NCBI GenBank assembly: GCA_965116805.1
Contig: OZ220713.1
Coordinates: forward strand, 703,887-767,886
Direction of reading: 5' to 3'
Source: Vicinamibacteria bacterium
GTDB taxonomy: Bacteria; Acidobacteriota; Vicinamibacteria; Marinacidobacterales; Marinacidobacteraceae
Length of the DNA: 64,000 bases
The notes under the pieces were generated by a model. It did not search any database, was not told where the DNA came from, and saw only the letters and a list, made by a program, of their open reading frames with translations. A program made the translations under genes and the position numbers. Position 1 is the stretch's first letter. Each line of letters opens with the position of its first letter. Of this stretch, positions 17,939 through 23,165 are shown piece by piece.

Positions 17939-18008
17939 GGTCGGCGAAAACGGTACGCCAAGTCAGGCAACAGCGGATGCCACCCGGACGAACTGGCGTT
18001 GGTCCTTT

Positions 18009-18054
18009 CGCCCGCCTCTCGGCGGGCGGTGCCGGTCTAAAGACCGGCGCTCCC
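18009..18054 (-). repeat. Two-hairpin REP-like element, copy 5
   Basis: Minus strand GGGAGC-GCCGGTCT-TT-AGACCGGC-AC + CGCCCGCC-GAGA-GGCGGGCG. Confidence 0.85.
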
Positions 18055-18075
18055 TGGCGGGCTACGGTTCGCGGC

Positions 18076-18798
18076 ATGAGAGCGGTACCCGGGCCGGGGG
18101 CTTCCGGCACCCTCTTCGTGGTCGCCACCCCCATCGGGAACCTCGACGACCTCTCGCCCCGGGCGCTCACCGTGCTGCGCGCCGTGCCCTGGATCGCCTG
18201 CGAGGACACCCGCGTCGCCCGGCGGCTCCGGACGCACTTCGGCCTGACCGCCCGGCTCATCTCGTACCACGACCACAACGAAGCGCAACAGGTCGAGTTC
18301 CTCCTGGGCCGGCTCCGGTCCGGCGAGGACCTGGCGCTCATCTGCGATGCCGGAACGCCCCTGATCTCGGACCCCGGTTACCGGGTCGTGCGCGCCGCGC
18401 GCACCGAAGACCTGCCGGTGCGCACCGTTCCCGGGCCGTCCGCGGTCGCCTCGGCGCTCTCGGTCTCGGGCCTGCCGACCGACAGCTTCACGTTCTTCGG
18501 TTTTCCGCCGGGACGGCGAAGCGCGAAGCGGCGGGCGTTCCTGCAGCGGTCGGCCGAGGCGCCCGGGTCGCTGGTGTTCTTCGAGTCGGCCCGCCGCGCG
18601 GCGGAACTTCTCGACGAACTGGCGCGAATCCTCGGTCCCCGCGAGGCCTCCGTCTCCCGGGAGATGACGAAGATCCACGAAGAGCACTGGTTCGGCTCGC
18701 TCCCCGACCTCGCCCGGCGGGCGAAGCAGGAACCGCCGCGCGGGGAGGTGACCCTGGTCGTCGCCCCCGCGGGCCGGAAGAAACAGGGCGCCACGTAG
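18076..18798 (+). CDS. rsmI: 16S rRNA (cytidine1402-2'-O)-methyltransferase
   Basis: LFVVATPIGNLDDLSPRA, CEDTR, DAGTPLISDPG, VPGPSA, FESARR, SREMTKIHEE. Confidence 0.95.
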   Translation: MRAVPGPGASGTLFVVATPIGNLDDLSPRALTVLRAVPWIACEDTRVARRLRTHFGLTARLISYHDHNEAQQVEFLLGRLRSGEDLALICDAGTPLISDPGYRVVRAARTEDLPVRTVPGPSAVASALSVSGLPTDSFTFFGFPPGRRSAKRRAFLQRSAEAPGSLVFFESARRAAELLDELARILGPREASVSREMTKIHEEHWFGSLPDLARRAKQEPPRGEVTLVVAPAGRKKQGAT

Positions 18799-18896
18799 AA
18801 TTCCGGCCGGGGCAGGGTGACGCTGATGGCGGGCCTTGTCCGCCCGCCCGTTTCTTCGACCGTGGCCCGGACTCCCGGGCGCTGAGTTTCCCGAAC

Positions 18897-20006
18897 ATGG
18901 ATTTCCTGCTCGTCTATCCCGCGTCGTCCGAGATCGGCCGCTATCCGTTCTTTGGCGCCACCGTCGCGGCCGCCGCCTCCGGGGCCGCCGCCTCCTTTCA
19001 GGCGGACGAGTTCGTCGTCCTGAACGGAGCCGCGGGCGACTCCGCCGCTCTGGAGCGCCGCGGAACCCGGGGCGCCATCCTCGCGCCGGGAATCGTCGCC
19101 CCGCCGGTCGACGCCGTCCACGCCTTGGTGGCGGCCGCGGACGAACCGCTGCGGCTCCAGAACGACGCCGGCCAGACCCTGGCGCTCGCCGGGACCGCGG
19201 AAGCTCTCGGCGCCGCCGTGCGCCCGAGCTTTGGCGAGACCGCCGATGCCCTGCGAGCCGCGGAATCTCCCGCGGGAGCCGTCCCCGGACACACCCGGAT
19301 CGAGGACGCGGCGACCTGGTCCGCGGCCATTCGCGAGTCCCAGCGCGCCACCGCCCGGCGATTCGTCGAAAACGGGGCGCTGGTGGAGGATCCGGAGACC
19401 CTGTGGGCCGATCCCACCTGCGAGGCCGGGCCCGGCGCCCGCATCGGGGCCTCGGTGCGGCTCACCGGCAGTACGAAGATCGCCGGCGGCGCCGAGGTCC
19501 AGAGCTTCTGCCGGCTCGAGAACACCGAGGTGGAGGCCGGGGCGCGCATCCTCAGCCATTCCGTGCTGCTCGACAGCGCGATCGGGCGCGATGCGAAAGT
19601 GGGTCCCTTCGCCCACATCCGCCCGAACACCCGGCTCGAACCCGAGTCCTTCGCGGGCAGCTTCGTCGAGACCAAGAACGCCGTGCTGGCCCGCCGGGCC
19701 GCGCTGCCCCACCTGTCCTACGTGGGGGACGCGGACGTCGGCGTTCGCGCCAACCTGGGGGCCGGGACCATCACGTGCAACTACGACGGGCGCGGCAAGT
19801 ACCGGACCGTGGTGGAAGCGGGAGCGTTCGTGGGAAGCAACGCCATCCTGGTGGCGCCGGTGACCATCGGCCGGCGGGCGTTCGTCGCGGCCGGGTCCGT
19901 GATCGTCGAGGATGTCCCCGAGGGGGCGCTCGCCATCGCCCGGGGCCGTCAGGCGGTGAAGCCGGGCCGGGCGGCGGGCCGCTTCGAAGGAGCCGACGAG
20001 GTCTGA
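18897..20006 (+). CDS. glmU: GlmU-like protein: intact acetyltransferase (left-handed beta-helix) domain, eroded uridyltransferase domain
   Basis: VGPFAHIRP, FVETKN, HLSYVGDA, GAGTITCNYDG, FVGSN, LAIARGRQ are present. The N-terminal LAAGxGxRMxSxxPK motif is absent and that domain is about 150 aa. Confidence 0.85.
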   Translation: MDFLLVYPASSEIGRYPFFGATVAAAASGAAASFQADEFVVLNGAAGDSAALERRGTRGAILAPGIVAPPVDAVHALVAAADEPLRLQNDAGQTLALAGTAEALGAAVRPSFGETADALRAAESPAGAVPGHTRIEDAATWSAAIRESQRATARRFVENGALVEDPETLWADPTCEAGPGARIGASVRLTGSTKIAGGAEVQSFCRLENTEVEAGARILSHSVLLDSAIGRDAKVGPFAHIRPNTRLEPESFAGSFVETKNAVLARRAALPHLSYVGDADVGVRANLGAGTITCNYDGRGKYRTVVEAGAFVGSNAILVAPVTIGRRAFVAAGSVIVEDVPEGALAIARGRQAVKPGRAAGRFEGADEV

Positions 20007-20020
20007 GCCCGACCCAGAAG

Positions 20021-21025
20021 ATGGAGGCGCCTCCGGCGCTCCTCGCCGAGATCCGCGACCAGCCGGCCGCGGCGCGGCGCACGCTGGCCGCCCTCGCGGC
20101 CGGTGCGTCCCGGCGCGCGGCCGCACTTCGGGACGCCGACGCGCTCCGGCAGGCGCGGGTCCTGCTCGTCGGGGCCGGATCGAGCCGCTACGCCGCCGAG
20201 ATCGGCGCCGAGTGGTTCCGGGGCTGGAAACTCGATGGCGACGTCCGTTCGGCGAGCGGCGTCGGCGGGCCGCCGGCGAGCGGAGTCCTGCTGGTCGTCA
20301 CCCAGTCCGGCGCCACCCGCAGCACGCTCCGGCTTCTCGACCAGGCCGCGGCCGCCGGCATCTTTCGCATCGTGGTCACCAACGAGGCGGAAAGCCCGGC
20401 GGCGCGAAGCGCGGAGCTGGCGCTCATTACCGAGGCGGGACGGGAACACGCGATTCCGGCGACCAAGACATTCACTTCGGCTCTGGTCGCGCTCCGGGTT
20501 CTGGGTCTCGAATGGGCCGCCGCGCTCGGCCGGCGGCCGCCCCGGCCCGGCACGCGCCACGACCCGGCGAAGCTCCTCGACGACGCGGTAGCACGAGAGT
20601 CGAAGATCGCGGCGCGGATCGCCGAGATCGAGATCGGCGGGCCGTGGTTTTTCCTGGGAAGCGGCATCTTCAGTCCCCTGGCACGCGAAGGCGCCCTCAA
20701 GCTGATGGAGACCGCGCTGCTCCCGGCCATCCCGGTACCCGCCGGCGAGCTGGCCCACGGACCGGCCGCCCTGCTCGGGCCGACCACGCCCGTCGTGCTG
20801 CTGTCCGCCAACGACCCTCTTTCCCGGAGCGAGGCGCGGTCCGTCGCTGCGGCGCGCGCCGCCGGCGCTCCGGTGTTCCGGTTCGGCGATTCCGGCGTCC
20901 CCGCGGAGCTCCAGCCCTTCGCGGTGGCGCCCGTCCTGCAACTGCTCGCCTTCTTCGCCGGACGGCAGCTCGGCCGCGACGTGGACGCCCCGGCGGGGCT
21001 CCAGAAGGCGGTCCGTGACGACTGA
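20021..21025 (+). CDS. SIS-domain protein homologous to the GlmS isomerase half (no glutaminase domain)
   Basis: EIRDQP, GAGSS, VTQSGAT, AGREHAIPATKTFT, AREGALKLME, GELAHGP, GRDVDAPAGLQKAV; no N-terminal Cys1 Ntn domain. Confidence 0.85.
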   Translation: MEAPPALLAEIRDQPAAARRTLAALAAGASRRAAALRDADALRQARVLLVGAGSSRYAAEIGAEWFRGWKLDGDVRSASGVGGPPASGVLLVVTQSGATRSTLRLLDQAAAAGIFRIVVTNEAESPAARSAELALITEAGREHAIPATKTFTSALVALRVLGLEWAAALGRRPPRPGTRHDPAKLLDDAVARESKIAARIAEIEIGGPWFFLGSGIFSPLAREGALKLMETALLPAIPVPAGELAHGPAALLGPTTPVVLLSANDPLSRSEARSVAAARAAGAPVFRFGDSGVPAELQPFAVAPVLQLLAFFAGRQLGRDVDAPAGLQKAVRDD

Positions 21026-23165
21026 TCCGGCCGGCCCTGACGACCGCGCCGGGCAGTCGGTCCTCGCGGAGCTGAACGCCTCCCAGCAGGAGGCGGTCTC
21101 GGCGCCCGCCGGACCCACCCTGGTGCTCGCGGGCGCCGGCTCGGGCAAGACCCGGGTCATCACGCACCGGATCGGCTGGCGCCTGCTCGTGGACGGGGCC
21201 CCGCCGGAATCCATCCTCGCCGTCACCTTCACGAACAAGGCGGCGCGCGAGATGCGCACCCGCGTGAACGCCCTCGCCGCCGCGGTGCGGGAGACCGGAT
21301 CCCTGCCCTGGGTCTCCACCTTCCACGCGTTCGGGCTGAACCTGCTGCGGCGCTTCGGCGGTGACATCGGCCTGCCGTCCGGGTTCCCGGTGTTCGGGGC
21401 GGACGAGAGCCGCGCGCTCGTTCGGCAGGTCGCGCGCGAACTCCTGATCGACGACGACCGTCTCCCGCTCGGGCGGCTCGTCCAGTTGATCTCCCGGCTC
21501 CGGAACGCCGAGGCCTCCGGCGCCGCCTTTCGCGGACCGCGGGATCCGCGGCTGGCGGAGTCCGTGCGGGAGGCGACTGCCCTGTACCGGCGCAAGGTCG
21601 CCGAATTGAAGGGAGCGGACTTCGACGACCTGCTGATTCGCGCCCTCGAGCTGCTGGACGCTTCGGAGGCGGCCCGCTCGTTCGTCGACCGGCGGGTGCG
21701 CCACCTGTTGATCGACGAGTATCAGGACACCGGTCCCACCCAGCACCGGCTGGTCCTGAGGCTCGCCGGTCACCGCGACGTCTTCGCGGTCGGCGACGAC
21801 GACCAGGCGATCTACTCGTTCCGGGGGGCCGACTTCCGGAACATCCTCCGTTTCCGGGAGGACTTCCCGGGCGCGCGGGTCCTGCGGCTCGAGGAGAACT
21901 ACCGCTCCACCGCCGCCATCGTGGACGCCGCCAACGCGGTGATCCGCCGCAACCGACGCCGCGACGGCAAGACCCTCCGTCCGCTGGGAGAGCAGGGCGA
22001 GCGGGCCCGGTTCCGTTCGTTTGCCAGCGAAACGAGCGAGGCGCAGGCGATCGCCGTCGAGATCGCGGCCAAGGGGGAGGGGCGCGGCTCCACCGCCGTG
22101 CTCCTCCGGACCCGCGCCCAGACGCGGGCGTTCGAAGAAGCGTTCGCCGCCCATCGGATCCCGCACGTGATCGTGGGCGGGCTCCGCTTCTACGAGCGGC
22201 GCGAGGTGCTGGACGCGCTCGCCGGCCTCCGGGTGGCGGCCAATCCGGACGACGACTCCGCCTTCCGGCGGGCGCTGGCGGCGATTCCGCGCGGCGTGGG
22301 CCCGAAATCGCTCCGCCGCATCGAAGAGCAGGGGGCCGCGGACGAAACGTCCCTGCTCGCGGCGGCGGAGCGGGTCGTGGCGGATCGGGGCCTGCCGGCC
22401 CGGGCGCTGAACGGACTCCGCGCTTTCGTGGAGGGGATCGCCGCGGTTCGCCGCGCCATCCCCGGGGGACCGGAGAAGGTCGTCCGTTCGGCGATCGCGG
22501 ACACGGGCCTCGGGCCCTTTTTCCAGGAGAACGACCGGGAGCGCTTCGAGAACCTCGTCTCGCTGCAGAACGCCGCCCGGGAATTCGAGCGGACGAACCC
22601 GGAGGGCTCCGTCGATGCCTTTCTGGACCAGGTGAGCCTGCTGTCGGCGGAGGACCTGATGCCGGAGGAAGGGGCCGATCCCGGCGTGCCGCCGGTGATG
22701 GTGATGACGGTGCACGCCGCCAAGGGGCTCGAGTTCGATTCGGTGTTCCTGGCCGGTCTCTGGGAGGGGCTCTTCCCGCACGCGTTCTCGCTCGAATCGG
22801 ACCTCCAGCTCGAAGAGGAACGGCGCCTCTTCTACGTCGGGATGACCCGGGCGCGGAAGCGCCTGCAGCTCTCGGCGGCGCCGGGCGGAGCGCCCTACCT
22901 CCGGTCGCGGGGCGGGGTCTCGCGGTTCCTCGGCGAGATTCCCCGGGACCTGCTCGAGACGGCGCGCGGCGAGGCCCGGACGCTCCCCATCGCGACGGCT
23001 CCCGCGGCCGGACCGTTCCGCAAGGGCGACTCCGTGCGCCACCCCAAGTTCGGGGTCGGCCGGGTAGAGACCGTGGACCCGGACGGCAAGCGCCTCTCCG
23101 TCCTGTTCCGTTACCACGGGCGGCGGCGGCTGGTCCTGGAGTTCGCGCGTCTGGAACGGGTCTAG
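21015..23165 (+). CDS. uvrD: UvrD/PcrA ATP-dependent DNA helicase
   Basis: AGAGSGKT, TFTNKAA, DEYQD, VGDDDQAIYSFRGA, LEENYRST, TVHAAKGLEF, EERRLFYVGMTRA, C-terminal Tudor VRHPKFGVG. Confidence 0.96.
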   Translation: MTTDPAGPDDRAGQSVLAELNASQQEAVSAPAGPTLVLAGAGSGKTRVITHRIGWRLLVDGAPPESILAVTFTNKAAREMRTRVNALAAAVRETGSLPWVSTFHAFGLNLLRRFGGDIGLPSGFPVFGADESRALVRQVARELLIDDDRLPLGRLVQLISRLRNAEASGAAFRGPRDPRLAESVREATALYRRKVAELKGADFDDLLIRALELLDASEAARSFVDRRVRHLLIDEYQDTGPTQHRLVLRLAGHRDVFAVGDDDQAIYSFRGADFRNILRFREDFPGARVLRLEENYRSTAAIVDAANAVIRRNRRRDGKTLRPLGEQGERARFRSFASETSEAQAIAVEIAAKGEGRGSTAVLLRTRAQTRAFEEAFAAHRIPHVIVGGLRFYERREVLDALAGLRVAANPDDDSAFRRALAAIPRGVGPKSLRRIEEQGAADETSLLAAAERVVADRGLPARALNGLRAFVEGIAAVRRAIPGGPEKVVRSAIADTGLGPFFQENDRERFENLVSLQNAAREFERTNPEGSVDAFLDQVSLLSAEDLMPEEGADPGVPPVMVMTVHAAKGLEFDSVFLAGLWEGLFPHAFSLESDLQLEEERRLFYVGMTRARKRLQLSAAPGGAPYLRSRGGVSRFLGEIPRDLLETARGEARTLPIATAPAAGPFRKGDSVRHPKFGVGRVETVDPDGKRLSVLFRYHGRRRLVLEFARLERV

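Follow-up and report, generated by a model that had tools for sequence, protein, structure and literature searches.

How does a bacterium obtain glucosamine 6-phosphate (GlcN6P) when the gene in the position of glmS codes for just the isomerase half of the enzyme? Amino-sugar and cell-wall synthesis in bacteria is taken to begin with GlmS, in a committed and irreversible step that depends on glutamine, and the enzyme is usually regarded as near-universal. It has also been investigated as a target for antibiotics (PMC10087520). The question is raised by a 64-kb stretch of DNA (hereafter the window, to which all window coordinates refer) from the 3.56-Mb one-contig genome of a Vicinamibacteria bacterium (NCBI GenBank assembly GCA_965116805.1; G000 below), in which an open reading frame on the forward strand at 20021-21025 encodes a protein consisting of two SIS domains. 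SIS-only GlmS-like enzymes are already known; the present one stands apart in that its gene occupies the glmS slot and apparently encodes the sole enzyme of the genome that forms GlcN6P. We consider it probable, if by a modest measure, that the protein is a reversible GlcN6P isomerase/deaminase that runs in the synthetic direction, from fructose 6-phosphate (Fru6P) and ammonia, and that it replaces GlmS.

The frame begins with an ATG codon, encodes 334 residues and is backed by third-position guanine-plus-cytosine (GC) values of 0.82-0.93. A preliminary description of this DNA had recognised a pair of SIS domains without a glutaminase domain, and this is confirmed. Pfam places SIS in two stretches of the protein (E 3e-22), and the glmS model TIGR01135 aligns with residues 8-331 through positions 254-604 of its 607 (146 bits, E 1e-42), such that the glutaminase half of the model has no counterpart in the 334 residues. 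Only 14 bp separate the stop codon of the upstream GlmU-like gene from the ATG, so that there is no space for a hidden domain between the two genes. A long upstream open frame (18836-21025) was considered as the source of a hidden glutaminase and rejected, as it is rich in Arg, Pro and Gly and overlaps the GlmU-like gene, whose frame is favoured by third-position GC. Some relatives have a stop codon 3-25 codons 5' of the start of the SIS-only gene, hence the short form is genuine and not an artefact of gene calling. The ratio of nonsynonymous to synonymous substitution rates (dN/dS), measured against seven close relatives, is 0.19-0.27 for the SIS-only gene, 0.16-0.25 for the GlmU-like gene and 0.11-0.19 for the uvrD gene downstream. 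The SIS-only gene is real, conserved and under purifying selection.

Of the characterised enzymes GlmS matches the protein best, although the score of 146 bits is far short of the curated TIGR01135 cut-off of 418 bits. Scores against the other families of this fold were lower and likewise far under the respective cut-offs: 66.5 bits for NagB-II (NF046059, cut-off 430), 48 for GlmD (NF041128, cut-off 580), 38.6 for AgaS and 23.3 for FrlB (TIGR02815 and NF008481). A sequence search of the Protein Data Bank (PDB) ranked the matches in the same way, with GlmS chains at 85-89 bits, NagB-II at 57 and archaeal GlmD-type proteins at 33-34. An AlphaFold model computed with 20 family sequences reached a mean predicted local distance difference test (pLDDT) of 90.5 and a predicted template modelling score (pTM) of 0.91. 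The top Foldseek matches to this model are GlmS isomerase domains (7DNR, 3TBF and 4S1W; template modelling scores 0.75-0.83), followed by Pyrococcus furiosus GlmD (12th) and Shewanella NagB-II (22nd).

Residues were mapped by alignment with Escherichia coli GlmS, and invariance within the family was judged in 21 orthologs. As claimed in the preliminary description, residues matching the catalytic Glu (in ALKLME) and a C-terminal Lys (in LQKAV) are kept: K227 and E230 of the former motif correspond to K485 and E488, and K329 of the latter to K603. The equivalents of K485, E488, H504 and K603 and an S/T-Q-S-G-x-T loop do not vary among the 21 orthologs aligned; within the phosphate-binding loop Q, S, G and T do not vary in the family, and Glu351 is replaced by Ala. 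In the same kind of alignment E. coli FrlB is without both lysines and E. coli AgaS without the K603 equivalent. Around this conserved core the protein has been remodelled. The C-terminal tail of E. coli GlmS, including Ala602, helps to build the ammonia channel together with the glutaminase domain (PMC10087520). This tail reads AKSVTVE in every full-length GlmS compared, as against x-K-A-V-x-D-D in the SIS-only family, where position 602 is variable. Also replaced are Lys487, Lys503, Cys300, Glu351, Ser401 and the G-V-A motif at 398-400. In total, 29 columns that are invariant in ten full-length GlmS proteins from bacteria and archaea are altered in seven or all of the eight family members compared, 20 of them also in unrelated SIS-only paralogs. 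The same motif changes (e.g. A-I/V-P-x-T-K) recur in other SIS-only proteins regardless of their position in the tree, including proteins nested inside GlmS proper. If the proposed function is right, the remodelled tail and site residues would be what adapts the active site to ammonia by opening it.

To place the gene in context we compared 41 genomes of the order, 25 from the family to which the window belongs (f1, including the window's own genome) and 16 from the sister families f2 and f3; tallies for the latter include the unpublished G033, in which glmS is split over two contigs and on which by itself no conclusion hinges. The locus forms a block that is conserved throughout the order, comprising DegT, rsmI, a GlmU-like gene, the slot, uvrD, a lipoprotein gene and gyrA. 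In the 16 f2 and f3 genomes the slot is filled by full-length glmS, with open frames mostly of 614-625 residues. In f1 it holds the SIS-only gene in 22 of 25 genomes (47-100% identity), directly after the GlmU-like gene, the position that the preliminary description had called canonical for glmS. Full-length glmS is absent from 19 of these 22 genomes, and seven of the 19 are single-contig (G000, G008, G017, G018, G020, G022 and G024). The remaining three, the close relatives G001, G004 and G014, encode both proteins. In two further genomes, G019 and G021, nothing occupies the slot; the GlmU-like gene runs straight into uvrD, and full-length glmS is found elsewhere. A tree of the flanking genes nests the genera of these two genomes within SIS-bearing lineages, beside the window's genus (support 98/98), and their loss of the SIS-only gene is therefore secondary. 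From G012 the whole locus is missing, probably through an assembly gap, as the otherwise universal GlmU-like gene is missing too. Wherever the locus is assembled, one or both of the two genes are present. A search of 300 genomes sampled from the phylum yielded no additional family member. Close relatives include sponge-derived Acidobacteriota metagenome-assembled genomes (MAGs), namely SB0661_bin_8, RHO1_bin_67, Ca. Marinacidobacterium sp. and bin61, the last from a study of Aplysina aerophoba (PMC5649159).

The full-length glmS of G001, G004 and G014 sits in a 3.9-kb segment (L129 989-4915) that is missing from G000, where the corresponding site lies at about 649,330-649,560 of contig C1, ahead of the window by about 54 kb. 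This segment also carries an amidohydrolase gene and a repeat resembling repetitive extragenic palindromes that recurs around the G000 genome; the difference may be either an insertion in the three relatives or a deletion in G000. Recent horizontal transfer was considered for the three near-identical glmS copies and rejected, since their flanks are 92-97% identical, as expected of close relatives, and it is the SIS allele that differs. Two types of SIS-only allele occur in the window's genus (L011, L014, L015 and L018), with only about 54% protein identity and a distribution discordant with the flanks. For example, G010 and G000 differ at uvrD by a dS of 0.2 but at the SIS-only gene by a dN of 0.34, and the flanks of G004 and G014 show 85-93% DNA identity but their SIS-only genes are not alignable as DNA. 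These patterns point to recombinational exchange of the slot gene within the genus.

The rest of the genome was examined for other sources of GlcN6P by model searches of six-frame translations. The preliminary description had called for a check for full-length glmS elsewhere; none was found in the one-contig genome, and the only other match to TIGR01135 is purF. This second match was considered as a stand-alone glutaminase subunit and rejected, as it scores 528 bits against TIGR01134. No nagB was found in the window's genome or in any of its 24 f1 relatives. Matches to nagA in the window's genome do not exceed 36 bits, and this gene was found in one of the 41 genomes of the order. Searches of the one-contig genome for ROK, Glk and BadF/G-type kinases and for the enzyme IIC component (EIIC) of the phosphotransferase system (PTS) were likewise negative; the genome appears to be without the usual means of phosphorylating free hexoses. 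The murA (393 bits) and murG (270 bits) genes are both present above their cut-offs, and UDP-N-acetylglucosamine (UDP-GlcNAc) is therefore required. There is a sole phosphohexomutase-family gene, which adjoins a sugar-1-phosphate nucleotidyltransferase/beta-helix gene (G000:C1:2330293-2332700; L005, L046). A second gene of the latter kind, at G000:C1 3074251-3074835 (L004), resembles the archaeal-type bifunctional sugar-1-phosphate nucleotidyltransferase (192 bits to TIGR03992). These two nucleotidyltransferase/beta-helix genes are a possible source of the uridyltransferase step and, with the phosphohexomutase gene, are candidates for the GlmM and uridyltransferase functions. Among the lipid A genes lpxA was the one searched, and its model had no match at E 1e-5 or better in this Acidobacteriota genome.

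From the observed architecture, catalytic residues, selection, position in the slot, missing alternatives and reciprocity with full-length glmS we infer which substrate is used, which way the flux runs and that ammonia takes part. As a stand-alone ketose/aldose isomerase-aminotransferase domain of GlmS type, the protein would make GlcN6P from Fru6P and free ammonia, which would be the reverse of the reaction of known SIS-fold GlcN6P deaminases, and would replace glutamine-dependent GlmS at the entry to UDP-GlcNAc. GlcN6P would then pass to the sole phosphohexomutase-family enzyme, to the GlmU-like glucosamine 1-phosphate (GlcN-1-P) acetyltransferase encoded next to the SIS-only gene, and finally to a separate sugar-1-phosphate nucleotidyltransferase. 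The preliminary description had left the choice between ammonia-dependent synthesis and amino-sugar salvage open. Gene content now favours the former and speaks less for the latter, because the genome has murA and murG and lacks detectable nagA, nagB, sugar kinases and PTS EIIC. Distribution also argues for a synthase, since the only f1 members that lack the SIS-only gene hold full-length glmS, a pattern unlike that of a dispensable catabolic enzyme. Sponge tissue is rich in ammonium, and we offer a tie between this habitat and the proposed enzyme as a suggestion.

How the slot gene arose is a separate matter from the reaction that it catalyses. On balance, we lean towards truncation in place of the local glmS, cut at the interdomain linker. 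Synteny makes the SIS-only gene a positional ortholog of glmS and is the one line of evidence that backs descent in place. The competing explanation, to which we give a substantial but less than even chance, is displacement, in which an older, separately evolving SIS-only GlmS-like gene replaced glmS, for example by recombination via the flanking glmU and uvrD genes; it bears on origin alone and would fit a reaction in either direction. The SIS-only family forms a single clade with a stem length of 1.1-2.3 changes per site, and every tree puts it outside the clade of all full-length GlmS proteins (support 96-100). Approximately unbiased (AU) tests reject a clade of the SIS-only family and the glmS of the order (p 1e-5 under LG+G4, 0.016 under C20), and the rejection survives removal of the 29 trait-linked columns (p 0.015). 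The phylogeny that the preliminary description had called for thus puts the protein outside GlmS proper and speaks against a sister relation to the glmS of the neighbouring families (AU p ≤0.016). Displacement also gains from the swapping of the slot gene among close relatives within the genus, from a weak grouping of the family with SIS-only paralogs of four f2/f3 genomes (80/55, in one tree), and from the existence in another lineage of a SIS-only gene between glmU and uvrD (P0095, L147, in which the glmU is complete and the contig is a 187-kb metagenome contig).

Against displacement, synteny is exact over five flanking genes, and no closer donor family emerged from a profile search of 1.84 billion representatives. 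Scores in that search were at least 293 bits within the family, then 213 and 195 for two isolated SIS-only proteins, then about 160-190 for what were mostly full-length GlmS. Matches from Poseidoniales were considered as SIS-only relatives and rejected as full-length GlmS, with open frames of about 606-610 residues. In addition, the stem is very long, and the release of constraints at the 29 columns, 20 of which are shared with unrelated paralogs, can make a derived lineage branch off at the base of the tree; it is possible that a long-branch or heterotachy artefact lies behind the basal position. Extra SIS-only GlmS-like paralogs occur in some sister-family genomes (G035:C21:332477-333517 and G038:C108:35677-36624; L133, L134), with 206-223 bits to the GlmS model; their neighbours, which encode an adenylosuccinate-lyase-like protein and a solute-binding protein, are uninformative.

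Several points weigh against synthesis from free ammonia, whatever the origin of the gene. E. coli GlmS is generally held to be unable to use exogenous ammonia. Variants of E. coli GlmS without the catalytic Cys failed to rescue a glmS nagB double mutant (PMC11822699), and the characterised SIS-only relatives, NagB-II and GlmD, are all catabolic deaminases (PMC10201695). P0050, a close SIS-only homolog, lies in a catabolic setting between genes for a major facilitator superfamily (MFS) transporter and a BadF/G-type kinase, and architecture alone therefore does not tell the direction of the reaction. The three f1 genomes that hold both genes fit a division of labour, with one protein acting as synthase and the other as deaminase. 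The sole phosphohexomutase gene stays well under the cut-off of the GlmM model (192 bits as against 447). Finally, as the absences of kinases and transporters rest on model searches, unfamiliar kinases or other uptake systems are possible. On the other side, overexpressed NagB suppresses the glmS defect of E. coli (PMC11822699, citing Vogler et al. 1989), and Pyrococcus GlmD, run in the aminating direction at high ammonium, has served to produce glucosamine in engineered yeast (PMC12385614). Searches of the literature library found no report on ammonia-dependent GlmS isomerase domains or on 'Marinacidobacterium'.

It is unlikely that the protein is instead a catabolic or salvage GlcN6P deaminase of the NagB-II/GlmD kind, in an amino-sugar auxotroph that takes hexosamines from its sponge. 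Such a role would be in keeping with glycan-rich sponge tissue, with the deaminase activity of the characterised relatives, with the setting of P0050 and with the retention of full-length glmS beside the SIS-only gene in three genomes. However, neither nagA nor nagB nor the kinases and PTS component named above were found, the gene stands in a biosynthetic setting beside that of a GlcN-1-P acetyltransferase with no adjoining transport or kinase genes, and the occurrence of full-length glmS in family members without the SIS-only gene is what would be expected of a synthase. A still less probable alternative is an isomerase or deglycase acting on another phosphosugar, or a sugar-phosphate-binding regulator, outside hexosamine metabolism. 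The SIS fold serves many substrates and the protein scores far under every curated family cut-off; nevertheless it keeps the complete GlmS catalytic set, including both lysines, unlike AgaS and FrlB, it holds a conserved position beside the acetyltransferase, and its presence is reciprocal with that of full-length glmS. Amidotransferases often occur in both split and fused forms, but a split GlmS, in which a separately encoded glutaminase docks on the SIS protein and supplies ammonia from glutamine, is most improbable, as the glutaminase half of the model matches only purF in this genome and neither the channel-forming tail nor residue 602 is conserved in the family.

Like GlmS, which provides both its best sequence match and its best fold match, the SIS-only protein has the K485, E488, H504 and K603 residues and the phosphate loop, and its gene follows one of GlmU type. 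In contrast to GlmS it has no N-terminal nucleophile (Ntn) glutaminase domain, in which the catalytic Cys follows the initiator Met, its tail is altered, and it falls outside the clade of full-length proteins. With Shewanella NagB-II (PDB 8EOL and 8FDB) it shares a two-domain, SIS-only architecture of about 330 residues and, as proposed, the chemistry of the same reversible reaction; in NagB-II the catalytic Glu and Ser of GlmS type are retained (PMC10201695). The deaminase activity of NagB-II is activated by GlcNAc6P, and its allosteric-site residues have been described (PMC10201695). However, the match to the NagB-II model covers residues 88-331 only, the proposed flux is opposite, and the neighbours are rsmI, the GlmU-like gene and uvrD, not nag-type genes, in a genome with no nagA or kinases found. 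GlmD of Thermococcus and Pyrococcus (PDB 2CB0 and 2DEC) is also a SIS-only relative of the GlmS isomerase domain, but is distant in sequence, and the setting here is biosynthetic. GlmD is reportedly part of a chitin-catabolic pathway, according to Tanaka et al. (2005; cited in PMC10201695). The closest physiological precedent is E. coli NagB run in reverse, a deaminase that supplies GlcN6P without GlmS, as we propose for the SIS-only protein (PMC11822699, citing Vogler et al. 1989). Unlike the SIS-only arrangement, which is natural and family-wide, that case depends on overexpression in a laboratory mutant, and the fold of NagB is unrelated.

A parallel arrangement is seen in a MAG named Moorella mulderi, where P0096 (L148-L150) is a SIS-only gene located after glmM in a cdaA-cdaR-glmM operon and its product nests within GlmS proper. 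This post-glmM position is that of glmS in the Bacillus subtilis operon. We propose tentatively, with a little less than even confidence, that the whole sponge-associated family dropped glutamine-dependent GlmS in favour of an ammonia-using isomerase domain and that the same shift took place independently elsewhere, as in the lineages of P0096 and P0095, through recurrent loss of the glutaminase.

In the window the SIS-only gene is the third of four co-oriented genes delineated by third-position GC and model searches (Table 1). The GTG start of uvrD overlaps the 3' end of the SIS-only gene by 11 nucleotides (21015-21025), which suggests that the GlmU-like, SIS-only and uvrD genes are co-transcribed. 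A terminator-like hairpin upstream may mark the start of a separate transcription unit comprising these three genes, although matches to the terminator-like consensus are no more numerous than in shuffled sequence. The GlmU-like protein retains its beta-helix acetyltransferase domain, preceded by an N-terminus of roughly 136 residues (136-170 across the order) that matches no nucleotidyltransferase model in any of the 41 genomes. In all 41 the GlmU model match extends only from about position 205-235 to 450. In alignments the first residues resemble a decayed Rossmann-type nucleotidyltransferase start; the AlphaFold model of the protein has a pLDDT of 57 (28-56 in the N-terminus), and the fold of the N-terminus is not resolved in it. 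The preliminary description had proposed that both genes of one ancestral pair lost their N-terminal functions jointly, but this is not borne out, as the change in GlmU is found in 41 of 41 genomes of the order and loss of the glutaminase in one family only. The disappearance of a recognisable uridyltransferase domain is separate from glutaminase loss, because it extends to the families with full-length glmS, and is apparently older.

Table 1. Features of the glmU-glmS region of the window (coordinates within the 64-kb stretch).
Feature	Coordinates	Strand	Remarks
rsmI (16S rRNA C1402 2'-O-methyltransferase)	17977..18798	+	TIGR00096 200 bits, over cut-off; conserved left flank
Terminator-like GC hairpin between rsmI and GlmU-like gene	18828..18848	+	Consensus match only
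GlmU-like gene, 369 aa	18897..20006	+	Beta-helix acetyltransferase intact; 234-238 bits to GlmU models, positions 225-446 only
SIS-only GlmS-like gene	20021..21025	+	334 aa, two SIS domains, no glutaminase domain
Phosphate-binding loop T94-Q95-S96-G97-A98-T99 (TQSGAT)	20300..20317	+	Equivalent to E. coli S347-T352
K227-L-M-E230 codons	20699..20710	+	K227 = E. coli K485; E230 = catalytic base E488
His246 codon	20756..20758	+	Equivalent to E. coli H504, ring-opening residue; invariant
C-terminal tail P-A-G-L-Q-K329-A-V-R-D-D and stop	20993..21025	+	K329 = E. coli K603
uvrD/pcrA-type helicase	21015..23165	+	PF00580, PF13361; TIGR01073 560 bits; conserved right flank

The annotation "SIS domain-containing protein" can mask the only GlcN6P-forming enzyme of a genome, and pathway reconstructions in which these symbionts count as glmS-negative may mislead. 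If the proposed function is correct, the protein would be a compact, naturally occurring GlcN6P synthase that works with ammonia, and as such attractive for making glucosamine, a use to which GlmD is already put (PMC12385614). It would also mean that the GlcN6P step can be rewired to free ammonia in a natural lineage, and that a change in core biosynthesis is tied to life in an ammonium-rich animal host.

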